Of a stretch of DNA of 64,000 nt, positions 37,339-62,057 are shown piece after piece. The stretch's first letter is position 1. Every line of letters starts with the position of its first letter. The position numbers and the translations under genes were made by a program. The notes below the pieces were generated by a model, which did not search any database, was not told the origin of the DNA, and saw only the letters and a program-made list of their open reading frames with translations. This DNA is from Polyangiales bacterium (GTDB lineage: Bacteria > Myxococcota_A > Polyangia > Polyangiales > Houyiibacteriaceae), in the NCBI GenBank assembly GCA_045106895.1, contig JBGCFM010000041.1:10585-74584 (forward strand), given 5' to 3'.

Positions 37339-39432
37339 TCAATCGGTGACGGGAGGAAGCTCCAGGACGAGATTGCTGTTCTCGCCGTCCACGGTGAAGC
37401 GGCGCGTCACGGGCAAGTGGCCTCGCTTCGTCGCGCGCACATTCAATACCCGTCCCAGCGGAGCGTCGCGGAGAGTGACCGGCGCGCTCCCAAGGCGCTC
37501 GCCCCCCACGTCGATTTGAGCCCCGCTGGGCTCGCTGTCGATCACCACGTCCGTGCGCAACGGGATGAACACCGCAATGTGGCGTGTGTGTCCCGGCTCC
37601 ACCTCGAAAGAGCGACGCCAGCTCTGGTAGTTGGGCAACGTCGCCTCGATGGTGAGGCGCTGCCCATCGGTGATCTCTTGCTCCAAAAAGAGCGGTGTTC
37701 GTCCCTCGATGAGGTCACCGTCGACGCGTACGACGGCCCCTTCTGGAACCGACACGAGCTCAATCCGGGTCTCCTCGACCACGGGTGATCGGAGGTTTGC
37801 CCAGATCAAGACCACGACTCCCATCATGAGTACCAGTGTCATCGGCAGAAGCCAGGAGCGACGGGCACGCAGGGGTCGTGAGGGCGGCAGAGACAGAGGC
37901 GCCGGCGGCGCGGAGAACACGTCGGAGTCTTCCTTCCACCCACTCAGGTCTGGGACGCTGCCCATCTGTGGAAAGGAGTCGTTCGTCGACGCTGCGATGA
38001 ACGGCCACGGCGTCGGGTCGCGCGGCGGCGGCGGCACTGTGATGGGTTGCTCCGCGGATTGACGCGCTGACGCGAGACCTTGCGCGGCTTCCCGCGCGGC
38101 CTTCAACCTCGCCTGCGCGCCGGACTCGACGACGGTGGAGTCGTCCCACTCTTCGTTCGGCGGCGACGTCGTTCGAGCGATCTCCGCTTCCGCGCTGGAC
38201 GCGTCCTCCCACACGCCGGTTGCTTCATCATCGATTTGTGAATCCGGCCCGAGCGACGGAAGAGCGTCGCTGGTGGATTCGTCCTCGAAGAGAGCCCTGC
38301 GTTTCGCCGCTCCATTCTCGCCTTCTGACTCTTTGCCGAGGTTCTCGTCCTTGAAGATGATGCTCTTGGTTCGGTCCGGCTGAAACTCCCCGCTCGCCAT
38401 GGGTTCGGTGGGAATACGCACCTTGTCACCGCTCGCTGGCACGAGGACTCGCTCGTCGGAGCTCAGCTCTGCGCCACCGGTGGCGGCCTCCATCTCCTTA
38501 GGGAAGAGCTCCGCCATCAGTGCCGCCAGCCGAGCCGCCGTGAACGTCGGCATGTAGCGGTAGAGGAACTGGGTCAGCGCCTGAGCCATCGCCTGGCCGC
38601 TCTCCCATCGCTCCGAAGGGTGCTCGTGCAGCGCCTTCATGACGATTGCGTCAAGCTCGGGTGGAACGTCCTTTCGGAACTTCGACGGTGCCTGCACATC
38701 CGCCTTGCGAACTTTTTCCAGGAGCTTCGGAAGGTTGTCGGCCTCGTAGACCATCTCGCCGGTCAGCAGTTCGTGGAGCACGATGCCGGCGCTGAATATG
38801 TCGCTGCGTCCATCAAGTGGGTCCGCCCATGCCTGCTCCGGCGACATGTAGAAGTACTTTCCTTTGATCACACCCGCTTCCGTCTGACCCGTTCGTTGGG
38901 CAGCTTTGGCGATTCCGAAGTCCGCGACCTTCACCTCACCGGAAAACGAAACCAGCACGTTCTGCGGTGACACGTCTCGATGAACGATGTTGAGCGGCTC
39001 ACCCGAGGGCGCCTTTTTCCGGTGGGCGTAGTCGAGGCCATGGCAGAGCTCGGACACCATGTACGCGCAGAGATCGACGGGAATGCGGACGTTTTGATCG
39101 GTCACGCGACGCAGGACTTGAGACGCATCCGCGCCCTCGACGAACTCCATCACGATGAAGTAGTTGTCGTCGATGCACCCCAAATCGAAGGTCTGCGCGA
39201 CATTTACATGGGTGAGGAGCACGGAGAGCTTCGCCTCGTCGACGAGCATCTGGATGAAGGTCTGGTCCTCACTAAAGCGAGGGTGGATCACCTTGATGGC
39301 GACGAGCTTTTCGAACCCACCGATGCCTTCGGCTTTCGCGACATACACCTCGGCCATCCCGCCAACGGCGAGGCGTCGCAAGAGGGTGTACGGCCCAAAA
39401 GGACGCGGTAGATCCAAGACGTCGGGAAACAT
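37339..39432 (-). CDS. Ser/Thr protein kinase with TM segment and two C-terminal PEGA domains
   Basis: GGMAEVY, VAIKVI, HRDVSPQNVLV, DFGIAK and YMSPEQ. TM segment LLPMTLVLMMGVVVLIW. PEGA-like VSVPEGAVVRVDG and DSEPSGAQIDVGG. Confidence 0.88.
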   Translation of the reverse strand: MFPDVLDLPRPFGPYTLLRRLAVGGMAEVYVAKAEGIGGFEKLVAIKVIHPRFSEDQTFIQMLVDEAKLSVLLTHVNVAQTFDLGCIDDNYFIVMEFVEGADASQVLRRVTDQNVRIPVDLCAYMVSELCHGLDYAHRKKAPSGEPLNIVHRDVSPQNVLVSFSGEVKVADFGIAKAAQRTGQTEAGVIKGKYFYMSPEQAWADPLDGRSDIFSAGIVLHELLTGEMVYEADNLPKLLEKVRKADVQAPSKFRKDVPPELDAIVMKALHEHPSERWESGQAMAQALTQFLYRYMPTFTAARLAALMAELFPKEMEAATGGAELSSDERVLVPASGDKVRIPTEPMASGEFQPDRTKSIIFKDENLGKESEGENGAAKRRALFEDESTSDALPSLGPDSQIDDEATGVWEDASSAEAEIARTTSPPNEEWDDSTVVESGAQARLKAAREAAQGLASARQSAEQPITVPPPPRDPTPWPFIAASTNDSFPQMGSVPDLSGWKEDSDVFSAPPAPLSLPPSRPLRARRSWLLPMTLVLMMGVVVLIWANLRSPVVEETRIELVSVPEGAVVRVDGDLIEGRTPLFLEQEITDGQRLTIEATLPNYQSWRRSFEVEPGHTRHIAVFIPLRTDVVIDSEPSGAQIDVGGERLGSAPVTLRDAPLGRVLNVRATKRGHLPVTRRFTVDGENSNLVLELPPVTD

Positions 39433-39622: not shown

Positions 39623-40129
39623 ATGACGACGAACGAAGCCCCTGGGATGAAAATCAGTCCCTCCATGCTGGCCGACATCGGACTTTTTGGTGGCCTAGAC
39701 GACGAAACCCTTGCAGTCCTCGCCGAGCAGCTCCCACAGGTGCGCGTCGAAGTAGGCGCCACCGTCGTGGCCGAAGGCGACACCGCCCAAGAGATGTTTG
39801 TCGTCCTTGGCGGCGAGCTTGAAGTCGTCAAACGGGGCCCACGTGGCGGAGAAGCCCGTGTTGCCCTCTTCGGGCCCGGCGACTGGTTCGGAGAAATGTC
39901 CATCCTCGACGTGGCCCCACGATCCGCCACGGTCCGTTCCGTGGCCCCGACCCTCTTGCTCCGAGTCACAAACGAAGACCTCGAGCGGCTCCTCTACCGT
40001 CGGGCGCCGAAAGCCTACAGCCTGCTCATCATGAACATCGCCCGTGAGCTCTCACGGCGCCTGCGAGTCGCGGACGGCATCATCGCCCAGTTCGTCTCCA
40101 CGGTGAACGACACCTACCCCGGCGCCTGA
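39623..40129 (+). CDS. Stand-alone cyclic-nucleotide-binding domain protein
   Basis: LFGGLDDETL, FGEMSILD and PRSATVRS form the CAP_ED phosphate-binding cassette. Confidence 0.8.
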   Translation: MTTNEAPGMKISPSMLADIGLFGGLDDETLAVLAEQLPQVRVEVGATVVAEGDTAQEMFVVLGGELEVVKRGPRGGEARVALFGPGDWFGEMSILDVAPRSATVRSVAPTLLLRVTNEDLERLLYRRAPKAYSLLIMNIARELSRRLRVADGIIAQFVSTVNDTYPGA

Positions 40130-44177: not shown

Positions 44178-46436
44178 GTGCTGCTTTTCCTCGCCCTCTC
44201 CTTTTTCGCGGGTCTCGCCCTCCGGCAAGGCTTCGATGTCGGAGCACCTGCGGCGGCACTTGGCGTCGTCCTCTGCCTTCTGTGTCTCTACTTGGCCCAC
44301 CTCGTCAGAGCCCGATCGTGGGTCTTATTGGCGGGGCTCGCTGGGCTCTTGGCGGGCGCTTCTTTGCCCGTCGCCAGTGGTCACGCAGCAGCACCAGGCC
44401 TTTTGCGAAGCGAGTGCCGCGTGCTTCGGCACGCGGGCAGCGGCGCGCTCGTCGAGGTGCAGCGAGCGGAATACGTCGGAGACCCACGCCCTGCCCCCAG
44501 CGCTCGCACTCGACTGTGGGTGCGCAGCCTGGACGCTCCCGTAGGGACAACGCTGCGTCTCCTTCTTCAGGTGCGCGCTCCTTCCCGCTTCCGAAGTCCC
44601 TCGCCGCACGATCCTTGGCCTGCCTTGCGTGTCGACGGGTTTGCACGCCTACGCGCGCCGGCGGAGGTGCTCCATGCGCCGTCCGGGAGCGCGCTTCTCC
44701 ATCGGGCCCGAGGCGCTCTTGGTGCACGCCTCGACGCGACGCTGGCCCCGAGCGCCGCGTCCCTCGCTCGCGCGCTCCTGCTCGGCCAAGGAAGCGCTCT
44801 CGCCACAGAGCAACGAGATGCGTTTCGAGGCGCTGGGCTGAGCCACCTCTTAGCCGTGAGTGGGCTCCACGTTGGCCTCGTCGTCGGCGCGCTCTTCGCC
44901 CTGCTCCGCTGGCTCTTCCGCCGCCGTCGCGATCCCGAACGCGCCGCGGCACTCCACGTCATTCCCATGACACTCGGTTTTGCGCTCATGGCGGGTGGCG
45001 CGCCGAGCGTTTGGCGAGCCGCGCTGATGGCCACGGCCGTGCTCGTGTGCCGCGCGCTACGGCGCCGCCCTCGAGCCATCCCCACACTGGCGTTCGCGGC
45101 GCTCGTCTTCGCCATTCTCAACCCCGAGTCCGTGTTGCGCCCGGCGTTCCTCCTCTCTCTCGTGGCGACGCTGAGCATCGTGACCGCGGATCTACGTGGC
45201 GGCGCACTGCGAAGCGCTGTTCGCGTCAGCGTGCGCAGCACCCTCGCGACCTTGCCCCTGGTGCTCTGGTGCTTCGAGGGCGTGCCGCTTCTCGGTGTGC
45301 TGGCAAATCTCGTCGTCGTCCCCATCGCTGTGTTTGCCCTCGTGCCCCTCGCTTTTGTGCATGCCCTCGCGGCGTCCCTGGGAGTCGCCCACCTCAGCGC
45401 GCCACCCTTCGAGCTTGCTTGCTCCGCGTGCACGGCGCTGAGCGCGCTCTTCGAATCCACGTGGGTGGTGCCCCCACCCTCGAACCTCCAGGGCGTCATC
45501 CTGGCGCTGCTTTCCGTCGGCCTTCTCTGGGCAAAGTCTTGGCGGCGCACCGCGCTGATTGTTTTGGTCGGGACCTTCGCGCTCGTCGGCGCCGAGGCCT
45601 GGCTGCGTTACAGCGAGGCTAAGCCCGGCCGACTACGAGTCACATTCGTGGATGTGGGTCAGGGAGACGGCGCCCTCGTTGACCTACCCAATGGTCAGCT
45701 GCTGCTCGTCGATGCCGCGGGAGGAACCCCCGACGCCGGACGTGAGGCGATGCTGCCCCTCCTCCGCGCGAGACGACGCAGCCGCGTGGACCTCGCCATC
45801 ATCACGCACCCGCACCCAGACCACTACGGCGGACTCGCCGCCATCGCCGACGCGATGCCCATCGACGAGGCGTGGGCGAGCGGCCAGGGTTGGGACGAAG
45901 CCCCACATGGTCCGGCCGCAGCGCTTCTCCGGCGACTGCGACGGGAGGGCACCCACGTCCGCTTTCCGCCGGACTTCTGCGGGGAAGAACGAAGACTTGG
46001 CGAAGTACTTATCGAAGTGCGTTGGCCTTGCCCGCGCTTCGACGCAGGGTTCGATGCAAACGACAATTCCATCGTCGTGAGGCTGCGCTACGGCGAGCGG
46101 AGTATTCTCTTCACCGGGGACATCGAACGCGAAGCGGAGGCGCGGCTTGCAGACCAAGACCTTCGCGCGGAGATCCTCAAAGTCCCTCATCACGGCTCTC
46201 GCACATCATCCACGAGCGACTTTCTCGACGCCGTCGCGCCCGAGTTTGCCGTGGCGAGTTGCGGCCGATTCAACTCGTTTGGGCACCCGCACGCCGAGGT
46301 GGTTTCACGCTACCGTCGGAGGACTGTTCCGCTGTGGCGCACCGCCGAAGACGGCGGCGTCATCGTTCAGACCGAGGGCGAGAGCTGGGAGGCGTTTAGC
46401 GCCGCACGCCAAGTCTCTTGGCTGCCCACTCGCTAG
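44178..46436 (+). CDS. comEC: ComEC/Rec2 DNA internalisation protein with C-terminal metallo-beta-lactamase domain
   Basis: FRGAGLSHLLAVSGLHVG is the competence domain. FVDVGQGDGALV and ITHPHPDHYGG (HxHxDH) are present, with many TM segments. Confidence 0.87.
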   Translation: MLLFLALSFFAGLALRQGFDVGAPAAALGVVLCLLCLYLAHLVRARSWVLLAGLAGLLAGASLPVASGHAAAPGLLRSECRVLRHAGSGALVEVQRAEYVGDPRPAPSARTRLWVRSLDAPVGTTLRLLLQVRAPSRFRSPSPHDPWPALRVDGFARLRAPAEVLHAPSGSALLHRARGALGARLDATLAPSAASLARALLLGQGSALATEQRDAFRGAGLSHLLAVSGLHVGLVVGALFALLRWLFRRRRDPERAAALHVIPMTLGFALMAGGAPSVWRAALMATAVLVCRALRRRPRAIPTLAFAALVFAILNPESVLRPAFLLSLVATLSIVTADLRGGALRSAVRVSVRSTLATLPLVLWCFEGVPLLGVLANLVVVPIAVFALVPLAFVHALAASLGVAHLSAPPFELACSACTALSALFESTWVVPPPSNLQGVILALLSVGLLWAKSWRRTALIVLVGTFALVGAEAWLRYSEAKPGRLRVTFVDVGQGDGALVDLPNGQLLLVDAAGGTPDAGREAMLPLLRARRRSRVDLAIITHPHPDHYGGLAAIADAMPIDEAWASGQGWDEAPHGPAAALLRRLRREGTHVRFPPDFCGEERRLGEVLIEVRWPCPRFDAGFDANDNSIVVRLRYGERSILFTGDIEREAEARLADQDLRAEILKVPHHGSRTSSTSDFLDAVAPEFAVASCGRFNSFGHPHAEVVSRYRRRTVPLWRTAEDGGVIVQTEGESWEAFSAARQVSWLPTR

Positions 46437-47602: not shown

Positions 47603-48733
47603 CTAGAGCGACTCTTCGTAGATTCGGTACGTCTTGTAGACTTTGCCCCGCATCGCCTTGATGCCGAGGTTGATGGCGCGGTTGTCTTCGAGGGTCCAGC
47701 TGAGCTCAGCCCACTCGTAGCCGTGCCGCATTCCGCGGTAGGCGAGTTCGGCGTACATGGCCGTTGAGAGAGCTCCGTAGCGCTTCATTCCGCGGAACTT
47801 CCGCTTGATGCCGAGCATCATGAGGCGGGCGCTCTTTGGCTTCTCGACCTTGAGGCGCCAGAGCATCTTGGCCCAGCCGAAGGGGAAGAGTCGTCCGTCG
47901 AGGTCATGGACCAAAGACGGTAGGTTTGGCAGGCAGATGACCATCGCCGCGACCTCCCCGTTGACCTCTGCGAAGAACGCGAGTCGCGGGTCGATGATGA
48001 GCTTCATGTCCTTGGCGACCTGCTCGACCTCGGCTTCCGTCGTTGGAACGAAGCCCCAGTTGTCCGCCCACGCGTCGTTGAAGATCTCGAGAACAAGGTC
48101 GAGTTCTTCGCGCATTCGCTTCGGTTCGACGCTGCGGAAGGTCACTTCCGGCAGCTCGTTGATCATGTCCCAAGCGCGCTTTACGCGTTTTGGCGGCTCG
48201 GCGGCAATGTACTTCCAAGCGAGGAGGTCTTTGGCCTTTTCAAGACCGGCGTTCTCGATGAGACGATGCTGATACTCGCGGTGGTGCGGCATCGAGAGCG
48301 CCGGCGGCGTGTCAAAGCCGTCGATGAGCACACCGGACTCTTCGTTGATGCACAGCGAGAGAGGCCCGCGCATCGTGGTCATGCCCTTGGCGCGAAGCCA
48401 CGCGCGACACGCGTCGAGGAGCGCGTCGGCGACCTCCTGATCGTTGACGGTGTCGAAGAAGCCGAAGAAGCCTGCGCCGTCGTCGTGCACCTTGAGGTGC
48501 TCTCGGTCGATGGTCGCCGAGGCTCGGCCCACGGCCCGGCCGCGTCGTTTTGCGATAAAGAGGCGGCCCTCGCCGTGTAGCCAAAACGGGTTCTTGCCCG
48601 GCGTCAGGCGATCCTTGAGCTCCATTCGGAGGGGTGCAATGTAGGCGGGGTCCGTCGCATAGATCGGCGACGCGACGTCCATGAACTCTTTGACGCGCTC
48701 GCCCGGCGCAAAGTCCTCGACGACGATGCTCAT
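47603..48733 (-). CDS. GNAT-like N-acyltransferase family protein (376 aa)
   Basis: [24 protein letters not shown] and the C-terminal acyl-CoA-binding-like region resemble the long GNAT family. ATGA overlaps the fumC stop. Confidence 0.62.
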
Positions 48734-50136
48734 TTGCTGCCCGTTTTCAGAGGACCGACCATCTCGCCTGGTTTCACGGCGGCGTCGAACTCAGCGCCGG
48801 TCATATGACCCAGTTCTTCCACGGCTTGCCGAAGCGTGCTGCCCTTCTTGTAGGCATGTTTCGCGACCTTCGCGGCGTTGTCGTAGCCAATGTGCGGGTT
48901 GAGCGCCGTGACGAGCATGAGGGACTCATGAAGCTTCGCCTCGATGGTCTCCCGGTTTGGCTCGAGGCCTGCGGCGCAACGTTCGTCAAAGCTCGCGCAG
49001 CTATCGGCGAGGAGGCGTACGGACTGCAGAAGCGCGTTGGCCATCACAGGCTTGTAGACGTTGAGTTCGAAGTTGCCTTGGCTGCCGGCGAATCCCACCG
49101 TCGCGTCGTTTCCGAAGACCTGACAGCAGACCATGGTGAGGGCTTCGCATTGAGTTGGGTTGACCTTGCCGGGCATGATGGAGCTGCCGGGTTCGTTCTC
49201 GGGGATTCGAATCTCACCGATGCCGCAGCGGGGACCGCTCGCGAGCCAGCGAACATCGTTGGCGATCTTCATGCAGGCGGCGGCGAGCTGCTTGAGGGCG
49301 CCGGAGGCTCCCACGTAGGCGTCGTGGGCGGCGAGGTAGGCAAACTTGTTCTTGGCGGTGATGAACTCTTTGCCCGTCAGCTCGGCGATGGTGGCGGCGA
49401 CTTTGACGTCGTAGCCTTCGACGGTGTTCAGGCCGGTGCCGACCGCGGTGCCGCCGAGGGCGAGCTCGCGGAGCTGAGGGAGCGTCGCTTCGATGGCCGC
49501 GAGGGCGTGGTCGAGCTGAGCGACCCAGCCGCTGATCTCTTGGCCCAAAGTGATGGGCGTCGCGTCTTGAAGATGCGTTCGGCCAATCTTCACGATGTCG
49601 TGAAAAGACTTCGCCTTGCCGTCGAGAGTGTCGCGCAGTTTGCGCACCTTGGGCAGCAAGCTGTCCTCGACGGCGATGACGGCGGCGATGTGCATCGCCG
49701 TGGGGAACGTGTCGTTGCTGGACTGTGACTTGTTCACGTGATCGTTGGGGTGAACGGGCGTCTTGCTGCCGAGCTGTCCGCCCGCGAGCTCGATGGCGCG
49801 GTTGGCCAGGACCTCGTTGACGTTCATGTTGGACTGCGTGCCGCTGCCGGTCTGCCAGACCACGAGAGGAAAGTGGGAGTCGAGCTTGCCCGCGATGAGC
49901 TCATCGGCGGCCTTCACGATGAGGTCTCGGACGCTCTCTTCGAGGTTACCAAGGGAGTGATTGGTGATCGCCGCGGCTTTCTTGAGGTAGCCAAAGGCGT
50001 GGATGATCTCCGTGGGCATGCGGTCTTCACCGATGGGGAAGTTCATCCGCGAACGCATCGTCTGGGCGCCGTAATAACGGTCAGTGGGCACCTGCACATC
50101 GCCCATAGAATCGCTCTCAGTCCGAAATTCACTCAT
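48730..50136 (-). CDS. fumC: Class II fumarate hydratase
   Basis: [16 protein letters not shown] signature, [17 protein letters not shown]. Confidence 0.95.
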
Positions 50137-53525: not shown

Positions 53526-55070
53526 CTAGGAAGAGGTGATATAAACCCAGGTCCCCACCCGCTCCCGGTCCGCAAAAACAGCGTGCCAGGAGGCAGGCAG
53601 ATGAGGCCCGGCCCAGTGGAACACCCAGCGCGCGTCGGCGGGGGAGAGGTTCACGCAACCGTGACTGCGAACGCGGCCGAACTGGTCGTGCCAGAAGGCC
53701 GTGTGAAGCGCGTAGTTGCCTTCAAAGTACATCGTCCAGGGCACGTCTTCGATCTGGTAGGCGCCCTCTTCACTTGTAAGGTCGTCCATCGTCGTCGAGA
53801 CATGTTTCGACTGAATTCGGTAGAGCCCCGTGGGCGTCTCAAAGCCTTCACGGCCCGTAGCGACGGTCGTCGCGTAGACAGGGGTGTCGCCTTCGTACGC
53901 GACGAGGGTTTGCTCGGCCAATGAGATATGCAGCCAGCGGTTGGTCTCGCGGACACGCGGCGGGCGGGCGACGGCGGCGGCGATGCGAACGGCACTTCGG
54001 CGAATCGTGTAGCCCTCGCGATCCACAAGGTAGCTGCTGCCGTTTCGGTCGATCATCTCGGCCACATCGATGGCGGAGTGACGTTCCAGCGTTCCCGCGC
54101 TCTGGTATCTGCGGGTGGTCCCGACGCGGCGAAGTCGATGCGTTCCATCTCGCAGCGTGAAGGCGAGTGGAAGCCGGGAGCCGCCACCGAGGACAACGCC
54201 GTGATGGCGTGACGGAGTGGGTTCGTCGAGGAACGCGCTTCGCACATAGCCGCCGCGAACCGTGCGCAGAAAATCGCTCTGGTCGTCAGGGCTGCGCTCG
54301 TCGATGCTCACGTAGAAGCCCGCGCGCATTCGCTGTCGCACGAAGTCCGGGAGCGTGACGTTCTCGGGCAGAATACGTGGCTCTTCTTGGTCTTCGCTGC
54401 CGGGTGCGGGAGGTGCGTCTACGGAGACATCCTCATCCGAAGCACCAGGGCGGGCGATGTTGTTGAACATGTCCGTAATACGCTCTTCTTCGGCTTCGCT
54501 CGGGAGCCGCCAGAACTGCGGAATGTTCCGCCGGCGCGCGAAGGCGTACTCGTAGGGCAGCGGGTCCTCGAGGGCGGGCTGCACTGGAATGGGCGCGAAC
54601 TCCGGCGGCTGGTCATCGATGAGGGTGCCCTCACTGCGGCACACGTAACCGCCGCCGGGGACCTCGAACCAGCCTCGCCGGCAACCGACACCGGGAACGC
54701 GCTCGGTGGCCCGAAAGCGCGAGCCCCGACGCATATAGCCTGCGACGGGTGCAGACGCGTTCGGCTCGGAACGGACCCGCTGAAGAAAGTGCGTGGTGAT
54801 TCCGTGGTTTGGGTACCGCTCGTCAAAGGCGCGCTCGCTGGCCCGTTCGCTCTCTCGGAGGCGCTCCAGGACGTCGTCGCCGTCATCTGGGCTTACGGGA
54901 ATCGCCACGGCCACCGGAGCGCTGGGCTCGACCAAGGGCTCGGCAACAGCCTGCGCAGACGGCGATTCCGCGTCGCCCTTGCCCGCGTCCACGGGCTCGC
55001 TTGGCGTAGGCCCGCACGCAGTGCTCAGAATGAGCAACAGGAGGAAGCGGAATGAGGCCGAAGGGACCAT
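53526..55070 (-). CDS. L,D-transpeptidase (YkuD domain) with long N-terminal region
   Basis: The C-terminus has the HGCVNLSPADARWVF catalytic His/Cys motif. The start is set to the ATG at 55070, giving MVPSASFRFLLLLILSTACG. The listed longer start adds Arg-rich sequence that does not look like a signal peptide. Confidence 0.85.
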   Translation of the reverse strand: MVPSASFRFLLLLILSTACGPTPSEPVDAGKGDAESPSAQAVAEPLVEPSAPVAVAIPVSPDDGDDVLERLRESERASERAFDERYPNHGITTHFLQRVRSEPNASAPVAGYMRRGSRFRATERVPGVGCRRGWFEVPGGGYVCRSEGTLIDDQPPEFAPIPVQPALEDPLPYEYAFARRRNIPQFWRLPSEAEEERITDMFNNIARPGASDEDVSVDAPPAPGSEDQEEPRILPENVTLPDFVRQRMRAGFYVSIDERSPDDQSDFLRTVRGGYVRSAFLDEPTPSRHHGVVLGGGSRLPLAFTLRDGTHRLRRVGTTRRYQSAGTLERHSAIDVAEMIDRNGSSYLVDREGYTIRRSAVRIAAAVARPPRVRETNRWLHISLAEQTLVAYEGDTPVYATTVATGREGFETPTGLYRIQSKHVSTTMDDLTSEEGAYQIEDVPWTMYFEGNYALHTAFWHDQFGRVRSHGCVNLSPADARWVFHWAGPHLPASWHAVFADRERVGTWVYITSS

Positions 55071-55209
55071 GACTAAGGGGCTCGCACATACCGCACTTAG
55101 GGGTCCAGAAAACGGCAGCTTTTCGGATATTTCGCCCCAAAAGCACTGCACAGACCCTTCAGCGGCGGTGGGCGGTTGACGCCTGAGGTGGCCGCTCGTA
55201 CCACCTGGC

Positions 55210-57393
55210 GTGCACCCCGCCCGTCCGCGCGCTGAGACCTCCCCCTGCCCATCTTGTGGCAAGGACGTAGACGCCCTTCGGGCTGCCCGCGTGGTGCTTT
55301 TGGACAGCGGTGCACGCTATCTCTGCAGTGCCTCCTGCGCCTCGGATTTCCGGCAAGGCAGCCGGCATCATGAATCGTCCCCGGCGCCGGCCAGGACCAC
55401 CTCAGTGCCCGAACAAGTCCGCGAGGCGACCATGCCCCGCATCGCGCTCCAGGCGCGTGAAAACGAAACCGCCGCTCGGCGCGCCCTCGTGGCGCCTGAG
55501 GCTGTGCCAATTCCGTGGAGCGGCATCCTTCTGGCGGCCGCCGGATTTGGCCTGGGCCTCGCCGCCCAGTCGTGGCTTGTGGCCCTCGCTTCTCTCGCAT
55601 GCACGACGCTCGCGTCCGTCGTCGCGTTGATCCGCGGCGCCGGCGCCAGGGCGGATGTCGGCACCGTCGCCTGGGTGGCGGGCCCCCTCGGCGCGACCCT
55701 GGCGGCCATCGCAGGGATGCTCGCGTTCGTGGAGCTCCAACAAAATGCAGGGCTCGCCGGCGCAGCCATCGCAGCCCTCGCGATGGTTGCACGCTCATGG
55801 CTCGACCGACGGGCCAGGCAGCCCGTCGCCGAGGTCGTGCACGACTTGGCCGCCAGCTTTCCAACCCGCGCACGCATTCCCACCAAAGAGGAACACGCAC
55901 GCTACGAAGAGATCCCAGCCTCCTCGCTCCGCGTCGGTTCGGAAATCCTCGTCATCGAAGGGGAAACCGTCGCCGTCGATGGTGTCGTCGTCAGCGGCGA
56001 GGCCAGTGTTCTTATCCACCCAACGGCGGGCACGCCAACGCGAATCAAAGCGGGTATGCGTGTATTGGCCGGCGCCAAAGTCACCGATGGCGCCCTTCGC
56101 GTGATGGCGAGCCGCGTCGGCGACGAACGGGCGTTGAAGCGACCCGTGCGCTACGGCGACGTGCACGGACCCCACGCCGCTCGCATCGCACGACTCGCCG
56201 ACCGCGTGACGCGATACGGCGGCCTCATCGCCCTCGCCGCCGCCCCCCTCGGTTTGGCCCTCACCGGCGACCCCGGTCTTTGGGGAAGCCTGTCCGCCGC
56301 CGCCGCGGTCCTCCTCGCGGCGCCCCTTCTCGCTGCGAGGCGCGGCGCCGAGTCCCCTTTCGTCGCCGCCGCCGCCAGCGCCGGCTCGAGGGGCATCGTG
56401 TATCAGGACGCTCGCTCGATGGAATCCGCTGGGCGCGTCACCACCGCAGCGCTGTCCGCGTCGGGGGTCATCACCGAAGGGAACCCTGAAGTCGTCGGTG
56501 TGTTTCCCGTCGGCGAAGCAGACGTCAGCGAGCTCATCGGGATGATCGCCGGCGCCGAGGCGAAGACGGAGTCCCATCCCCTCGCGCGGGCGCTCATTCG
56601 TTACGCCCAAGCACGCTCTATCTCGCCTGTCCTGGTCCGACGTGCGTCGCGAATCGCTGGGCGTGGCATCACCGCCATCACGCAGGACGGCGTCCCCCTC
56701 GTCGTCGGCACACGTCAGCTTCTCCTCGACGAGGGCATCAGCATCGCGATGGCGGATGCCCTGGCCAAGCGCGCCGAAGAGCGAGGTCAGACGGCGCTCT
56801 TCGTGGGCCTCGGCGGACGCGTCCGCGCGGTTATCAGCTTACAGGACCCTGTCCGACTTGGATCACGTGCGGCGGTGCAACGAATCTTTGATCTCGGCAT
56901 CGATGTCGTGCTCTTGAGCGGTGACCACCGCGCGACGGTCGCCTCCCTCGCCAAACCCCTCGACGTGAACAACGTCAAGGCGGAGCTCCTGCCGAGTGAA
57001 CAGAAAGAAGCCGTGCGGCGCCTTCGCGACGCCGGCGGACTCGTGGCTGCCGCCGGCCGGCTGCCACTCAACGCGCTCCCTCTCGAAGCCGCGGATGTCC
57101 CCATCCTTCTCGACTACGCAGGCTTGCCCGAAGGCGAACGAGGCATCGCCATCGCTGGCGTCGATGTCCGCGACGCGGCGGCGGCTCTGTGGATCGCCCG
57201 TGCCGCGCGCAAAGAGGCCACGCGCGGCGTCGCCCTCGCCGTGGGCGCCGGCGGAATGCTCGTCGCCGGCGCTGCCCTTGGATGGGTGGTCCCCGCCGCC
57301 GCAGCCGTCATCGCCGTTGGCGTCGACGCATTTGCTCTGCCAGCGGGCGCTCGCTTGCTGCGCCGAATCGAACTTCGCTTGCCTTCACGATAA
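55210..57393 (+). CDS. P1B-type (heavy-metal) ATPase homologue with N-terminal TRASH/YHS-like zinc ribbon; catalytic motifs degenerate
   Basis: CPSCGKDV...YLCSASCASDF at the N-terminus. It aligns with CopA-type ATPases along its full length and retains SHPLA (HP motif) and LSGDH. However, DKTGT is SASGV, TGES is TAGT, CPC is APL, and GDGIND is GRLPLN. GTG start. Confidence 0.8.
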   Translation: MHPARPRAETSPCPSCGKDVDALRAARVVLLDSGARYLCSASCASDFRQGSRHHESSPAPARTTSVPEQVREATMPRIALQARENETAARRALVAPEAVPIPWSGILLAAAGFGLGLAAQSWLVALASLACTTLASVVALIRGAGARADVGTVAWVAGPLGATLAAIAGMLAFVELQQNAGLAGAAIAALAMVARSWLDRRARQPVAEVVHDLAASFPTRARIPTKEEHARYEEIPASSLRVGSEILVIEGETVAVDGVVVSGEASVLIHPTAGTPTRIKAGMRVLAGAKVTDGALRVMASRVGDERALKRPVRYGDVHGPHAARIARLADRVTRYGGLIALAAAPLGLALTGDPGLWGSLSAAAAVLLAAPLLAARRGAESPFVAAAASAGSRGIVYQDARSMESAGRVTTAALSASGVITEGNPEVVGVFPVGEADVSELIGMIAGAEAKTESHPLARALIRYAQARSISPVLVRRASRIAGRGITAITQDGVPLVVGTRQLLLDEGISIAMADALAKRAEERGQTALFVGLGGRVRAVISLQDPVRLGSRAAVQRIFDLGIDVVLLSGDHRATVASLAKPLDVNNVKAELLPSEQKEAVRRLRDAGGLVAAAGRLPLNALPLEAADVPILLDYAGLPEGERGIAIAGVDVRDAAAALWIARAARKEATRGVALAVGAGGMLVAGAALGWVVPAAAAVIAVGVDAFALPAGARLLRRIELRLPSR

Positions 57394-57405: not shown

Positions 57406-58833
57406 ATGAGTAAAAAAGCCTGGGGTGGACGTTTTAGCGAAGAACTCAATTCGCTCGCGCTTCGTTATAGCGCCAGCGTAGACGTGGACTCGCGCCTCGC
57501 GTTCGAAGACATCGAGGGCTCCATCGCCCACGCGACGATGCTCGCGGCCCAAGGAGTCATCAGCGACGACGAGCGCGACGCCATCGTCAAAGGGCTCGGC
57601 GAGATTCGCGCGGAGATCGAAGCGGGGGAGTTTCCTTGGGATGCCGGCCGCGAAGACGTGCACATGAACATCGAGGCCGTGCTCACAGAGCGCATCGGCG
57701 AAGCCGGCGGCAAGCTTCACACGGGGCGCTCCCGCAACGACCAGGTCGCCACGGACATGCGCCTATGGGTGCGCAAGTCCATCTACGAGACGATGGCGCG
57801 CATCGACCGCATGGAGTCCGTCCTCGCGGCGCGCGCGGCGGCGACCATCGACGTACTGATGCCCGGCTACACGCACCTTCAACGCGCACAGCCGATCCGT
57901 TTGGCACACCACCTCTTGGCTTGGGCAGAGATGCTCGACCGTGACCGCGGGCGACTCGAGGACGCCGCACGCAGGCTCAACGAGTGCCCCCTTGGGAGCG
58001 CAGCGCTCGCCGGGACGACGTTTCCACTCGACCGTGACGCCGTCTCCAAGGCCCTCGGCTTCCGAGCGCCAATGCGCAACAGCCTCGATGCGACGGGCGA
58101 CCGTGACTTCCTCATCGAAACCGTGAGCGCCCTCGCCTGCTGCGCCGTTCACCTCAGCCGAATCGCCGAAGAGCTCGTCGTTTGGTCTAGCCAGGAATTT
58201 GGCTTCGTTGTGATGAGCGACGCCTTTACGACAGGCTCGTCGATCATGCCGCAGAAGAAGAACCCCGACATGGCAGAGCTCGCCCGTGGAAAAACCGGGC
58301 GCGTCATCGGACACCTGGTGAACCTCCTCGTCACCCTCAAGGGCCTCCCCCTCGCGTACAACCGCGACCTGCAGGAAGACAAGACGCCCGTGTTCGACGC
58401 CTTTGACACGGTAAACGACACCCTCGAAGTGCTCGCCGGTGCCCTCGCTGGCGCGCGCTTCGATGCGGGGAACATGCGAAGCGCGCTTCGTGAGGGTTTC
58501 CTCGACGCCACGGAGGTTGCCGACTGGCTCGCCGCACGCGGTGTGCCGTTCCGCGAAGCGCACCACGTCGCTGGCAGCCTCGTCGCCCAAGCCGCAGAAG
58601 AGTCCAAGGTGTTGGCGGAGCTGACGTTGGCGCAGTTCAAAAAAGCCCACGCGTCCTTCGACGAGAGCATCTTTGACGCCCTCGACATGGAAACCGCCGT
58701 GGAACGCCGAAACATCTTCGGTGGCCCGGCGAAGATGCAGGTTAGCGCGGCGACGGAGGAGCTTTTCGCGCGCATTGTCGCGCGCGGAGCGGACCCCGCC
58801 GCTCTCTCCGCGGACGCTCGGAACGAACCATGA
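57406..58833 (+). CDS. argH: Argininosuccinate lyase
   Basis: WGGRF N-terminus, TGRSRNDQV, and the GSSIMPQKKNPD signature. Confidence 0.95.
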   Translation: MSKKAWGGRFSEELNSLALRYSASVDVDSRLAFEDIEGSIAHATMLAAQGVISDDERDAIVKGLGEIRAEIEAGEFPWDAGREDVHMNIEAVLTERIGEAGGKLHTGRSRNDQVATDMRLWVRKSIYETMARIDRMESVLAARAAATIDVLMPGYTHLQRAQPIRLAHHLLAWAEMLDRDRGRLEDAARRLNECPLGSAALAGTTFPLDRDAVSKALGFRAPMRNSLDATGDRDFLIETVSALACCAVHLSRIAEELVVWSSQEFGFVVMSDAFTTGSSIMPQKKNPDMAELARGKTGRVIGHLVNLLVTLKGLPLAYNRDLQEDKTPVFDAFDTVNDTLEVLAGALAGARFDAGNMRSALREGFLDATEVADWLAARGVPFREAHHVAGSLVAQAAEESKVLAELTLAQFKKAHASFDESIFDALDMETAVERRNIFGGPAKMQVSAATEELFARIVARGADPAALSADARNEP

Positions 58834-60164
58834 GTCCCGCAACGGCGCCATCTTTTGCGCGGCATGATGTACCGGAGAGCGCGTACTTCCAGTGGCGCGG
58901 AGGCGTCCTTCACTGCGACGGAGTGAGCCTTGAGAGCATCGCGCGCGGCGTCGACACACCGACGTTTGTGTACTCGGGTCGGGCCGTCGACGATGCCTAC
59001 ATGGCGGTCTCTTCGTCCGCGGACAAGGTCGGAGCACGAGCGACGCTCGTCGCCTACGCCATCAAGGCGAACGGCAACCTAGCGCTCCTGCGGCGCCTCG
59101 CGCTCCTTGGTTGCGGCGCCGACATCGTGTCGGAAGGAGAGCTTGCGCGAGCGTTGCGCGCGGGGATCCCCGCCGAACGAATCGTCTTTAGCGGCGTTGG
59201 CAAGCGAGACCGAGAACTTGTCGCAGCCTTGGACGCGGGCATTCGGGCCATCCATGTGGAAAGCGCCGCCGAAATTCACGCCATCGAGGCCATCGCCAAA
59301 GAACGGCGACAGGTCGCCACGTTGGCCCTCCGGGTGAACCCCAACGTCGACGCCGCGACCCACCCGTACATCGCGACGGGTCTCCACGACACCAAGTTCG
59401 GCCTTGAGATTCCGGTGGCGCGCGAACTCCTCACGACGATTGTGCAGAGCGATTACCTTCGCCTAGAAGGGGTCGCCTGTCACATCGGCTCGCAGCTCGA
59501 AACCGTCGCCCCACTCCGCGAAGCGGTGGAGATTCTAGCGTCCTTCGCCGACGAGTGCCGTCACGCCGGAGCTCCATTGGTCTCCGTGGACGTGGGCGGC
59601 GGATGGCCGATGGAGTACGGGTCCGAAGAGAGTCCGTTCCCGTCCCACGATGCGTTCGGCGAGGCCATCGCCGCTGGCTTCCGAGACGCCAGAGTTGACG
59701 TCGGAGACTACGACCTCATCACGGAACCTGGGCGCGCACTCGTCGGCAGCGCCGGCGCGCTCCTTACCCGTGTCGTCTTCGTCAAGGAACAGGGGGGTCA
59801 CCGCTTTGTCATCGTCGATGGCGCGATGACGGAGCTGATTCGCCCTGCACTCTACGAGGCGTATCACGCCGTCGCGCCGGTGCGGCCGCGCGACGGTGAA
59901 CCCGTCGCCATGGATGTCGTCGGGCCGGTCTGCGAGTCCGGAGACTTCTTCGCGCTCGGACGCCGGATCACACCCGTCGAGCGTGGCGATCTCATCGCCA
60001 TCATGGGCGCCGGGGCCTACGGCCGGGAGATGAGCATGACCTACAACGCACGCCCCGCCGCGGCGGAGGTGCTCTGTGAAGATGGCGCGATGACATCGAT
60101 CCGTACGCGCGCGCCCATGGAGAGCCTGTGGGCCGGCGAGCCTGAGGCTGAGCCGGTCCCCTAG
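58830..60164 (+). CDS. lysA: Diaminopimelate decarboxylase
   Basis: AYAIKANGN (PLP Lys), HIGSQ, EPGRALVG, CESGD. ATGA overlaps the argH stop. Confidence 0.92.
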   Translation: MSPATAPSFARHDVPESAYFQWRGGVLHCDGVSLESIARGVDTPTFVYSGRAVDDAYMAVSSSADKVGARATLVAYAIKANGNLALLRRLALLGCGADIVSEGELARALRAGIPAERIVFSGVGKRDRELVAALDAGIRAIHVESAAEIHAIEAIAKERRQVATLALRVNPNVDAATHPYIATGLHDTKFGLEIPVARELLTTIVQSDYLRLEGVACHIGSQLETVAPLREAVEILASFADECRHAGAPLVSVDVGGGWPMEYGSEESPFPSHDAFGEAIAAGFRDARVDVGDYDLITEPGRALVGSAGALLTRVVFVKEQGGHRFVIVDGAMTELIRPALYEAYHAVAPVRPRDGEPVAMDVVGPVCESGDFFALGRRITPVERGDLIAIMGAGAYGREMSMTYNARPAAAEVLCEDGAMTSIRTRAPMESLWAGEPEAEPVP

Positions 60165-60173
60165 CGCTTTGAA

Positions 60174-62057
60174 CTAGAGGATCGACTTCGCGTTACGCGC
60201 CTTTGGGTCGCCGGCGCGAAGTCCCGAGTCGAGACGAGCGGCAGCGTTGATAAGCCCCAAGTGGGAGAACGCCTGGGGGAAGTTCCCGAGGAGTTCACCC
60301 GTGGACGGGTCGATCTCTTCGGCGAGGAGTCCCAGGTGGTTGCTCGCCTCGGCATGCGCCACGAAGACCTCCTGGGCTTCGTCGAGCTGCCCGCCCATCG
60401 CCAAGACTTCCGCCATCCAGAAGCCGCAGAGGACAAACGCGCCTTCGTCACCCGGCACGCCGTCTTCGCTTCGGTAGCGGTAGAGGTATGGCCCGGCGCC
60501 GAGTTCGCGCCGAATCCGGTCTCGTGTCGCGACGAAGCGTGGGTCCTTGGGGTCGACGAGACCGCGAAGCCCAAGAAGCAGCAACGCCGAGTCGACGTGG
60601 TCGTGATCGTAGGCGGCGACGAAGTGGTCGCGCTCGGCGCTGAGCCCCTTCGCACATACATCCGCGTGGACCCGCGCCGCCTCCGCTCGCCAGCTGTCTG
60701 CGATGTTGTCGCCGAAGAGGTCCGCGACATCTGCCCCGCGCTCGAGGGCGAGCCAACTCATCAGCTTGGAGTGGACGTTGTGGCGCACGCCCCCACGAGG
60801 CTCCCAGATGCCGTGGTCCGGCTCGACCCATCGTTCTGAGACGCTCTCCACAACGCTGCGAAGGGAGCGCCAGCCCCGGAGTGTCAGGGAACCACCGGAG
60901 TGTTCGTAGACATACGCGGCGTCGAGGAGCTCGCCGGGAACATCGTGCTGAATCTGGTCCCGCGCTCCGTTGCCCACCCGAACCGGCCCGCTGCCTCGAT
61001 ACCCGGAGAGATGTTCCAGGACGACCTCGTCTGGAACCTCGCCGCCGTCGAGGGTGTACATAATCTGCAGGTCGCTTCGACGACCGAGGGCGTCGCGAAC
61101 GAAGTGAAAGAAGTCACGTGCTTCGCTGACGGCGCCGATGAGAGTGGCCGAACGAATGGCCATCGCGCTATCGCGAATCCACGAGTATCGGTAGTCCCAG
61201 TTCCGAGAGCCGCCGATCCACTCCGGCAGCGAGGTTGTGGGTGCGGCAACCATGGCGCCGGTGGGCGCGTACTGGAGGAGCTTCAACACCAACGCACTAC
61301 GCACCACGTGGTGACGCCAAGGGCCTTCATAGGTGAGGCGTGCAACCCAGTGGCGCCAGTGAATACGCGTCTGGCGGAGCTGCTCGTAGGGGCGATGAGC
61401 CGCGACCGGCGCGACCTGCGGTGCATCCCAAGAGAGGATCATCCAGCGGCGTTCCCCGGTCTTCATCGTGATGCGGGCTCGCATTCCCTCCGAAGCGTCA
61501 GCGGCGGGGACCCACTTGGCGCCGGTGGCCAGCGCGACCATACGCCCGCCGCAGGACCCGGTCGCCAGGACTCCGTCCGGGCTCACCTCGAACTTCACCT
61601 CTGAACGCCCGAAATCGAAGCGCGGATCGAAGGTGAGGTCGAGTTCAACTTCGCCTTCCACGCATTGAATTCGGCGATGCACTTCGCTCACGGCGAGACG
61701 CGGATCTCCGGTCCACGGCATGTAATCCGTGAGACGTACGACGCCTTGACCCGGCACCTCAAAGAGCGTCTCTAGAACGTTCGTGTCGGGGTCGTATCGT
61801 TGCCGCGACACAAAGGGCCGGGCGACCGGGGTGATGCCTGTTTCGCCCGCGCCCTTGCCCTGGTCCAGGATCGCGCCGAAGACGCTCGGTGAATCAAAGC
61901 GGGGAAAGCAGAGCCAGTCGATGACGCCGTCCGCACGGACAAGGGCCGCGCTGCGACCGTCGCCGATGACACCGCGAGCGCCGATGGGGAGCGTTTTCGG
62001 CTCGTCTTCAAAAGTAAAAGGCTCGTTGAGGCGCTTGGCAGCGCTGTACAGGTCCAC
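60174..62057 (-). CDS. Glycoside hydrolase family 15 (glucoamylase/trehalase-like)
   Basis: N-terminal beta-sandwich plus (alpha/alpha)6 region with NWDYRYSWIRDSAMA, IWEPRGG and LLAEEIDPSTGELLGNFPQAFSHLGLINAA. Confidence 0.88.
   Translation of the reverse strand: MDLYSAAKRLNEPFTFEDEPKTLPIGARGVIGDGRSAALVRADGVIDWLCFPRFDSPSVFGAILDQGKGAGETGITPVARPFVSRQRYDPDTNVLETLFEVPGQGVVRLTDYMPWTGDPRLAVSEVHRRIQCVEGEVELDLTFDPRFDFGRSEVKFEVSPDGVLATGSCGGRMVALATGAKWVPAADASEGMRARITMKTGERRWMILSWDAPQVAPVAAHRPYEQLRQTRIHWRHWVARLTYEGPWRHHVVRSALVLKLLQYAPTGAMVAAPTTSLPEWIGGSRNWDYRYSWIRDSAMAIRSATLIGAVSEARDFFHFVRDALGRRSDLQIMYTLDGGEVPDEVVLEHLSGYRGSGPVRVGNGARDQIQHDVPGELLDAAYVYEHSGGSLTLRGWRSLRSVVESVSERWVEPDHGIWEPRGGVRHNVHSKLMSWLALERGADVADLFGDNIADSWRAEAARVHADVCAKGLSAERDHFVAAYDHDHVDSALLLLGLRGLVDPKDPRFVATRDRIRRELGAGPYLYRYRSEDGVPGDEGAFVLCGFWMAEVLAMGGQLDEAQEVFVAHAEASNHLGLLAEEIDPSTGELLGNFPQAFSHLGLINAAARLDSGLRAGDPKARNAKSIL

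Follow-up and report, generated by a model that had tools for sequence, protein, structure and literature searches.

A P1B-type ATPase homologue without catalytic residues, maintained by purifying selection beside arginine biosynthesis genes in Myxococcota

Results

The Locus

Few membrane machines are understood as well as P-type ATPases, and the Asp residue of their DKTGT motif is treated as a defining feature. The gene described here, which we call X, encodes a homologue of the P1B branch of these pumps in which that Asp is absent. It lies in a 64,000-nucleotide (nt) stretch of contig JBGCFM010000041.1 from a Polyangiales bacterium, the whole of which is referred to below as the window and has a G+C content of ~65%. 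Downstream of X, on the same strand, are argH and lysA, and a gene for a YkuD-type L,D-transpeptidase diverges from it upstream (Table 1). The junction between X and argH is tight, the TAA stop codon of X being followed by 12 nt and then by the argH ATG at 57406, with an AAGGA Shine-Dalgarno sequence that overlaps the stop.

Table 1. Features of the X locus and other genes of the window
Feature	Position	Strand	Basis and remarks
Gene X, pseudo-P1B-ATPase, 727 residues	55210..57393	+	GTG start, TAA stop (57391-57393)
Conserved non-coding block, probable promoter TTGACG - 17 nt - TACCAC	55165..55209	+	TACCAC ends 5 nt 5' of GTG; no Shine-Dalgarno sequence
Four-Cys ribbon, TRASH/YHS-type, residues 10-50	55237..55359	+	C13-x2-C16-x22-C39-x3-C43
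Flexible linker from ribbon to membrane domain, residues 51-100	55360..55509	+	pLDDT 44-62; least conserved, 0.15-0.18 identity
MA, MB (kinked), M1, M2, residues 101-215	55510..55854	+	AlphaFold helices; 0.19 identity, subfamily A vs B
A domain, TGE loop replaced (residues 271-276)	55855..56169	+	PF00122
M3-M4, CPC replaced	56170..56388	+	alignment, model
P and N domains, residues 394-652	56389..57165	+	most conserved between subfamilies, 0.38-0.50 identity
M5-M6, residues 653-727	57166..57390	+	YN and MxxSS ligands lost
argH (argininosuccinate lyase)	57406..58833	+	Pfam Lyase_1 and ASL_C2
lysA (diaminopimelate decarboxylase)	58830..60164	+	Pfam Orn_Arg_deC_N, Orn_DAP_Arg_deC; synteny; 4-nt overlap with argH
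YkuD-type L,D-transpeptidase with SH3 domain	53526..55070	-	Pfam; 514-residue start at 55070 matches the gene call in L048 (see text)
Ser/Thr kinase with C-terminal PEGA domain	37339..39432	-	
Small cyclic-nucleotide (cNMP)-binding protein	39623..40129	+	
ComEC (Competence and metallo-beta-lactamase domains)	44178..46436	+	
Class II fumarase	48730..50136	-	
GH15 glucoamylase/trehalase-like enzyme	60174..62057	-	

X Has the Fold of P1B ATPases

Profile searches with Pfam detect an E1-E2_ATPase domain (PF00122; residues 230-371, E = 3.7e-15) and a HAD hydrolase domain (residues 419-613, E = 4e-12) in X. The NCBIfam model for heavy-metal P-type ATPases, TIGR01525, matches X over nearly the full model with 210.6 bits against a cutoff of 346.25, and the narrower equivalog models of NCBIfam all stay far under their own cutoffs. 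By phmmer, residues 162-700 align with A. fulgidus CopA (7r0g; E = 1.4e-40). This bears out the likeness to CopA-type pumps claimed in a preliminary description made from the sequence of this DNA, whose uninterrupted 727-residue reading frame is likewise present.

The AlphaFold2 model of X, which was built on an 86-sequence alignment, has a predicted local distance difference test score (pLDDT) of 91.4 and a predicted template modelling score (pTM) of 0.84. It consists of an N-terminal β ribbon (residues 10-48), a low-confidence linker of ~50 residues, eight membrane helices and the A, P and N domains, in agreement with the eight or so transmembrane segments and three cytosolic domains of the preliminary description. 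Among the membrane helices, whose mean hydropathy is at the level of canonical pumps, MB is kinked and M4 is broken by Pro at residues 371-372. When the model was compared with the PDB using Foldseek, P1B pumps came first, led by the E1 structure of AfCopA (7r0g; E = 6e-35, TM-scores 0.69/0.76) and also including ATP7B and LpCopA. X thus shares its fold and its domain order (ribbon, MA-MB-M1-M2, A, M3-M4, P/N, M5-M6) with the canonical P1B-1 Cu(I)-ATPases that carry YHS/TRASH domains, such as A. fulgidus CopA (7R0G/3J09) and L. pneumophila CopA (3RFU).

The Catalytic Residues Are Absent Throughout the Family

Motifs were called from a phmmer alignment with CopA, a MAFFT alignment with relatives and controls, and an alignment anchored on a profile hidden Markov model (hmmalign). 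Residue frequencies given here refer to 83 members of subfamily A, to which X belongs, 118 members of its sister subfamily B (201 family members) and 54 canonical pumps. Catalytic residues that are found in 93-98% of the canonical pumps occur in 0% of the 201 aligned family members. The DKTGT motif reads S416-A-S-G-V in X (nt 56455-56469), and its Asp is at 0% in A and B compared with 98% in canonical pumps. The sole member of the control set without this Asp, P0078, is itself a third, divergent member of the dead family. The Lys of the motif is also lost across the family. In place of the former phospho-Asp, Cys or Ser is found in 76% of A and 93% of B (Cys alone in 48% and 70%), and Ala, Gly, Phe, Asn, Met, Leu or Arg in some members; position 416 is Ser in X and Cys in a 94%-identical relative. 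Since this position is so variable, the family has no conserved new nucleophile. In subfamily A, Cys at 416 often comes with a His two positions on (LCTHGT), a further His at position 573 and, in some members, another at 617. Such residues could assemble into a Cys/His/Asp cluster where the Mg-phosphate pocket used to be. X carries Ser/Ala/Ser at this site (56455-56463), and such a cluster is therefore not essential.

The other parts of the pump machinery are affected as well. The TGE loop of X is PTAGTP (residues 271-276) and has no Glu, a residue present in 0% of A, 0% of B and 96% of canonical pumps. M4 reads AAPLLAARR (residues 370-378), with CPC aligning over P372-L373-L374, and the Cys pair is at 0% in the family versus 93-96% in canonical pumps. 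The Lys of LPxxK is Q598 in X and Arg in 87% of A and 99% of B. The hinge motif GDGIND has become G616-R-L-P-L-N (residues 616-621): its first Asp is Arg, His or Gln in 80-93% of the family, while its last Asp is retained in 94% of A, 99% of B and 100% of canonical pumps, with Asn in X. In the last two helices, the Asn of the M5 "YN" motif and the M6 "MxxSS" motif are lost, the second Ser of the latter being replaced by D706 in subfamily A only. New membrane motifs are likewise confined to subfamily A, in which AAPLLAxRR in M4 (the helix-breaking P372 at 100%, R378 at 92%) and Asp706 in M6 (92%) are conserved; they are absent in B, where the membrane ligand positions are unconserved.

Several residues of the P and N domains survive, among them those with which the N domain of real pumps binds adenine nucleotide. 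TGDN is SGDH in X (residues 570-573), and the S/T-G-D core is kept, D572 being found in 89% of A, 98% of B and 98% of canonical pumps. The HP motif is present in X (S-H456-P457), with its His in 63% of A, 79% of B and 98% of canonical pumps. The N-domain Glu (E450 in X) is at 92%, 97% and 87% in the same three sets, the GxG motif (G484-R-G486) is universal (100% in each), and the Gly that follows it (G500) is at 100%, 100% and 98%. Basic residues (H/R418, R574, R598 and R/H617) have been gained around the old phosphorylation pocket.

These alignments uphold what the preliminary description had said of the DKTGT, TGE and GDGIND replacements and of the survival of the HP and SGDH motifs, and none of them places an intact DKTGT, TGE or CPx motif elsewhere in X. 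The reading of CPC as APL held in part: both Cys are indeed gone, and the register was one residue off, the alignments putting CPC over P372-L-L. The losses of the LPxxK Lys, the M5 Asn and the M6 MxxSS come in addition to those previously listed. X therefore lacks four sequence-defined features of P1B ATPases (the DKTGT Asp, TGE, CPx with the M5/M6 ligands, and GDGxND/LPxxK) and scores below the TIGR01525 cutoff, so that it should not be filed as a P1B ATPase. It clearly descends from P1B ATPases and shares their fold.

The N-terminal Ribbon Is a YHS/TRASH Homologue with a Fourth Cysteine

The Cys signature of TRASH domains is C-x2-C-x19-22-C-x3-C, and the spacing in the X ribbon fits it. Of 253 members, 243 keep C-x2-C-x22-C-x3-C exactly. 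C39 and C43 show 100% conservation in A as well as in B, and only N-terminally truncated sequences are without C13/C16. A Pfam scan of the single ribbon sequence gave only weak matches (PF24273, E = 0.16). When the family ribbon profile was compared by hhalign with the YHS domains of canonical pumps (those positive for PF04945/PF19335, with the pattern DPVCGMxVD...FHFCSxxCRxKF), the probability was 97.7% (E = 2e-12). This homology supports the TRASH/YHS-type assignment made in the preliminary description. The canonical DPVC has become CPxC in the family, which adds a fourth Cys and removes the Met. In the model the ribbon is well defined (pLDDT ~91), with four short strands and a helix, and we regard it as a putative structural or sensory zinc site.

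The Dead Proteins Form a Large Clade of Myxococcota

X belongs to a family that is clearly separated from live pumps by search score. In a first homologue search, members P0001-P0065 scored from 1408 down to 209 bits (94% to ~35% identity over the full length), and ordinary P1B pumps started at or below 165 bits, a step below the family; in another search the family scored at least 504 bits and live pumps at most 318. A profile search covered 1.84 billion representatives of 50%-identity clusters; even the lowest of its best 150 matches scored above 375 bits, so the family comprises at least 150 such clusters. All 147 new sequences among these best 150 matches are without the DKTGT Asp, the TGE Glu and CPC. 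Subfamily B, recognizable by the motif FCARGTLLLG, alone comprises 410 clusters at 90% identity, and further dead lineages carry the motifs LRVEGT.., LCVRGT.. and VLSGRG... The search for orthologues with the same substitutions, proposed with the preliminary description, has thus yielded an entire clade. Eight dead-clade proteins are longer than X, at 800-916 residues (P0157, P0162, P0163, P0174, P0177, P0199, P0225 and P0387, the last encoded at locus L135); they have an extra N-terminal extension or an enlarged linker and give two matched stretches in the profile search.

Named members are always metagenome-assembled genomes (MAGs) of Myxococcota, labelled Polyangiales, Polyangiaceae, Sandaracinaceae, Sorangiineae, "Myxococcales"/"Deltaproteobacteria bacterium" or unclassified. 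Members with database accessions include MBO6939617.1, MFK7985743.1 and MCB9580424.1. The closest relatives of X are encoded at L048, a Logan contig (94% identity), and L001, a Polyangiales MAG (89%). In a neighbour-joining tree of 514 core columns, the dead proteins stand apart from canonical pumps in 92 of 100 bootstraps, which indicates that the catalytic apparatus disappeared in one ancient event, in a myxococcotal ancestor. In every search the nearest live relatives were pumps with YHS/TRASH N-termini, and the clade derives from copper-type pumps with such an N-terminal domain. It is large and old and, as far as names show, restricted to Myxococcota. Public databases label its members "cation-translocating P-type ATPase," "Cu+-exporting ATPase," "Lead, cadmium, zinc and mercury transporting ATPase" or "HAD family hydrolase."

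Selection Has Moved from the Ion Path to the P Domain

The ratio of nonsynonymous to synonymous substitution rates (dN/dS) for X is as low as that of its neighbours, at 0.046 between the window and L048 (argH 0.049, YkuD gene 0.058) and 0.069 between the window and L001 (argH 0.030, YkuD gene 0.046), with no X domain above 0.17 in these pairs; the ratios are approximate, because dS of ~0.9-1.0 is near saturation for the NG86 method, and are still far below 1. X homologues form a single open frame in 130 of 130 related loci, without a frameshift or stop. At eight of these the longest overlapping frame is misleading, as can happen in high-GC DNA, and the frame of the high-scoring segment pair is open in all eight. 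Strong purifying selection together with intact frames excludes a pseudogene, as the preliminary description had supposed when it called the protein repurposed rather than decaying.

The distribution of this constraint within the protein differs from that in pumps. In subfamily B, median dN/dS values over 20 independent pairs, computed from per-pair figures, are lowest for the second part of the P domain (P2, 0.03), followed by P1+N (0.05), the A domain (0.08), M3-M4 and M5-M6 (0.09 each), the ribbon (0.12) and MA-M2 (0.14). Identity between subfamilies gives the same picture when set against identity among canonical pumps. It falls to 0.18 between A and B in M3-M4 (0.56 among canonical pumps) and to 0.31 in M5-M6 (0.59), compared with 0.46-0.50 in the P domain (0.57), 0.38 in the N domain (0.38) and 0.42 in the ribbon (0.34). 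The region under tightest constraint is thus no longer the ion path through the membrane but the dead P domain, the inverse of the situation in real pumps.

X Is Linked to Arginine Biosynthesis Genes in Both Subfamilies

The preliminary description had noted argH-lysA 12 nt downstream of X, and this arrangement recurs. Of the 42 informative loci in the window's subfamily, 34 have a co-directional argH within 500 nt 3' of X, usually with lysA next; the gaps, derived from tblastn, range from 15 to 340 nt (median 62). The pair is kept in divergent lineages as well, with the order esterase-YkuD-X-argH in L135 and fumC(-)|X-argH-lysA in L137. Subfamily B, for which 83 loci were analysed (L052-L134), has the arginine genes on the other side: 52 of 54 loci have argD or argF as the immediate, co-directional upstream neighbour of X, and in L052 and L053 the argF stop overlaps the X start. 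argF is found in only ~40% of subfamily B loci, with argD abutting X in the others. Downstream of X in this subfamily is a Fur-family gene, which 47 of 62 loci have at a distance of at most 500 nt and 56 of 62 at a distance of at most 2.5 kb, giving the Polyangiaceae arrangement argD-(argF)-X-fur. In about nine subfamily B loci an insertion of at least ~1.5 kb separates X from fur. In its wider form the subfamily B block reads HAD(Cof-like)-argD-(argF)-X-fur; beyond fur come a gene for 5-formyltetrahydrofolate cyclo-ligase, encoded on the other strand, and one for a GT2 glycosyltransferase. Compared with models for Fur, Zur and PerR, the Fur-family neighbour is under all equivalog cutoffs, so that no type was assigned, and fur was not found near subfamily A X genes. 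An active P1B pump gene was found neither in the window nor in the conserved neighbourhood.

The simplest history would be an ancestral argD-argF-X-argH-lysA cluster that was later broken on different sides of X, and the linkage of X to arginine biosynthesis is therefore old. This linkage is very probably transcriptional, because the junctions of X are tiny or overlapping.

On its other side X has neighbours related to the cell wall. The YkuD gene, whose longest open reading frame in the window reaches 55262, adjoins X in 23 subfamily A loci (upstream on the same strand, upstream and divergent, or downstream and convergent), and stays beside X even where argH is not adjacent (L026, L033, L040, L044 and L136 among the YkuD loci). 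Upstream of it in the window, a gene at 50151-53006 (+) encodes a 951-residue protein with an esterase domain (residues 169-300) and a C-terminal Extensin-like_C domain ending ...EGHRDHFHLD, which we take to be an M15/VanY-type zinc-peptidase motif. This gene is syntenic with YkuD and X in at least 11 loci, and the two form a small peptidoglycan-remodelling pair beside X. They are lineage-specific neighbours, since both are absent in L137 and subfamily B; YkuD was accordingly rejected as a universal partner of X. Copper inhibits L,D-transpeptidases in E. coli, which could connect YkuD to a former copper pump. Among the other genes of the window, fumC and ComEC recur upstream of X in the distant relatives L135 and L137.

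The 139-nt divergent intergenic region between the YkuD gene and X contains two conserved non-coding blocks. The one that ends just before X is near-identical in the window, L048 and L001, despite coding dS values of ~0.9-1.0. Its promoter role is inferred, since a generic scan for sigma-70 promoters and terminators gave nothing above chance and did not call it. No Shine-Dalgarno sequence precedes the GTG of X, and its transcript may therefore begin at or only shortly before the start codon. The second block (55100-55135), near-invariant in the same three sequences, is closer to the YkuD gene and reads GGGGTCCAGAAAACGGCA..TTTTC.GA.ATTT. A candidate ARG-box-like or other common operator 5' of X was rejected: only the three closest relatives align there, and there is no wider AT-rich palindrome.

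Discussion

Judged from its sequence, X has what characterizes a pseudoenzyme, i.e., homology to an enzyme, loss of the catalytic residues and maintained selection. The soft-metal site in the membrane is gone. The Post-Albers cycle would be impossible, because X has no acceptor Asp, Mg2+ ligands, catalytic Lys or dephosphorylation Glu. We consider it highly likely that X is a conserved pseudo-ATPase that does not pump. The best explanation overall, which we hold to be probable by a modest measure, is a functional pseudoenzyme, a membrane-anchored P1B homologue unable to run the pump cycle that may act as a sensor or regulator.

The alternatives differ in how much of the old machine they would keep. 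A plain pseudogene, i.e., a copA-like gene in decay whose frame is open by chance, would agree with the loss of all catalytic motifs and with the score under the NCBIfam cutoff, yet its chance is practically nil given a dN/dS of 0.05-0.07 that equals that of argH and is low in 20 further pairs, no disruption in 130 loci, a confident fold prediction, and hundreds of diverged clusters that keep the architecture and new family-specific motifs. It is also very improbable that X is an active pump with non-canonical chemistry that moves some other substrate by means of a nucleophilic Cys or Ser in place of the old Asp. The prevalence of these two residues in A (76%) and B (93%), the retained S/T-G-D and last hinge Asp, and the complete fold speak for such a pump, but under the same selection the position can also be Ala, Gly, Phe, Asn, Met, Leu or Arg, and it differs between X (Ser) and its 94%-identical relative (Cys). 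Moreover, the TGE Glu, both Lys and the Mg2+-ligand Asp have all gone together, and the membrane ligands are unconserved in B.

Two further readings would leave X a role at the membrane or in metal homeostasis. X could be a passive channel or facilitator, ungated or ligand-gated. Its substrate would be a hard cation or a basic amino acid that the adjoining genes produce, and the cytosolic head would act as the gate. The invariant M4 Pro of subfamily A, the RR at the cytosolic end of this helix, Asp706 (92%) at a former metal-ligand position, the eight retained hydrophobic helices and an operon that makes Arg and Lys fit this idea. We nevertheless find it unlikely, since the membrane core is the part least conserved between A and B (0.18-0.19 versus 0.56-0.59 in real pumps), the M4/M6 motifs are absent in B, the membrane holds a single acidic residue, and MA-M2 exceeds the P domain in dN/dS. 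Dead paralogues often regulate live relatives, and X might be a regulatory partner or decoy of a real metal system, either as a heteromer with an active P1B pump or through docking of a metallochaperone or Fur-family regulator on its ribbon; it might also protect a copper-sensitive L,D-transpeptidase. Its descent from metal pumps whose YHS/TRASH domain is regulatory, its invariant four-Cys ribbon, the Fur-family gene near X in most subfamily B loci (47/62 within 500 nt, 56/62 within 2.5 kb) and the YkuD gene in 23 subfamily A loci give this proposal some substance. It is still improbable, if less so than a channel, as no active P1B pump gene accompanies X in the window or the conserved neighbourhood, fur is absent near subfamily A, YkuD is absent in B and L137, and the Fur-type protein is not assignable to a metal. 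Among the roles named in the preliminary description, a channel-like one is thus the least supported; a sensor or scaffold is what we infer.

How the favoured pseudoenzyme might work can be outlined tentatively, as a nucleotide- and metal-binding sensor, regulator or scaffold. In many pseudoenzymes, Arg side chains substitute for Mg2+ and Lys. X would no longer transport anything, and its N/P head might bind ATP or another anionic ligand without hydrolysis, the Arg/His residues at 418, 574, 598 and 617 standing in for the Mg2+ and Lys ligands. The ribbon would bind a structural or sensory zinc and mediate an interaction, the membrane domain would serve chiefly as an anchor, and the output of X would bear on arginine/lysine synthesis or, among Polyangiaceae, on the Fur-family regulator encoded next to X. 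A more specific and more doubtful version is that X is the first receptor derived from a P-type ATPase. Its dead P/N head would bind ATP or another anionic metabolite without hydrolysis and the ribbon would relay this to a partner. In Polyangia, the making of arginine and lysine, or else a Fur-family regulon, would in this way respond to energy or metal status, a function that would have been stable since before the Polyangiaceae/Sandaracinaceae split.

Several points weigh against a sensory or regulatory pseudoenzyme. ATP binding, zinc binding and the loss of transport are all deduced from sequence. The N-domain glycines that are kept could be structural rather than ligand-binding, and the HP His is just 63-79% conserved. 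The E1-like shape of the AlphaFold model is no reliable guide to the preferred state. In subfamily A, the conservation of M4 (AAPLLAxRR, with P372 at 100%) and of the M6 Asp (92%) means that a membrane function is possible there. No partner protein is conserved across the whole clade, and the operon linkage may represent inherited gene order rather than functional coupling, as the neighbours differ between subfamilies. Two kinds of loci depart from the arginine context altogether. In L049/L050 (P0062), X comes directly after two co-directional genes, for a CHASE-domain protein and a Ser/Thr kinase, at a gap of 50 nt, and overlaps with its stop codon the start of the gene for a NUDIX hydrolase, behind which are CinA, LigT and RecA; this context is related to signalling and nucleotides, not to arginine. 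In L051, argH-lysA is 8 kb from X and on the other strand.

There are precedents for transporters that have become sensors, such as UhpC, the yeast proteins Snf3/Rgt2 and Ssy1, and SUR, an ABC protein that is the nucleotide-sensing subunit of a channel. In these, as proposed for X, a transporter fold was kept for sensing after transport was lost. The analogy is functional only, since they belong to the MFS, APC and ABC superfamilies, unlike X. The closest systems by descent are the CopA-type pumps themselves, with which X shares a homologous ribbon and the HP, GxG, S/T-G-D and DxxK-type motifs. Unlike them, X has no DKTGT Asp/Lys, TGE Glu, CPC, LPxxK Lys, first hinge Asp or M5/M6 ligands, has four ribbon Cys (CPxC, no Met) in place of the DPVC type, and is constrained in the P domain instead of the ion path.

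Among P-type ATPases, the eukaryotic TMEM94/ERMA has A-, P- and N-like domains, a Pro-broken M4 and no TGES, and according to one structural study it has no phosphorylation cycle and does not bind Mg2+ but still binds AMPPCP (PMC12134183). Its status is disputed, another study having defined TMEM94 as a Mg2+ ATPase of the endoplasmic reticulum (PMC13322241). TMEM94 is a 10-helix type II protein that is unrelated at the clade level and keeps a candidate Asp, D417, whereas X is bacterial, is of type I (P1B) and misses the Asp outright. FUPA family 24 (TC 3.A.3.24; mycobacterial CtpH/CtpI) consists of double-length proteins with functional motifs only in the C-terminal region (PMC3573892). This family is a bacterial precedent for a P-type-related sequence without motifs, but one fused to a working ATPase half; in X the whole stand-alone protein is dead, and it belongs to a large independent clade under selection. 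In the literature on dead or inactive P-type or P1B ATPases we found no catalytically dead bacterial clade. FUPA families 27 and 32 of TCDB have M. xanthus members (PMC3924187). The X family is thus a pseudoenzyme branch of P1B ATPases that is apparently undescribed, the main caveat being a possible overlap with TCDB FUPA families (e.g., 27 and 32).

The family has practical and biological implications. Hundreds of database entries now annotated as "cation-translocating P-type ATPase," "Cu+-exporting ATPase" or "HAD family hydrolase" are a problem of annotation, since it is almost certain that their products carry out neither pumping nor hydrolysis. For the study of P-type ATPases, X and its homologues offer a natural "frozen" scaffold in which the coupling between domains can be examined without catalysis. 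That an entire machine is kept under selection after losing its Asp, its dephosphorylation loop and its ion site means that the fold has a second, non-pumping use. For the myxobacteria, which are rich in signalling and natural products, the family is a candidate new class of membrane sensors or regulators, and it reveals an unexpected tie between a relative of metal pumps and the operons for arginine and lysine biosynthesis.

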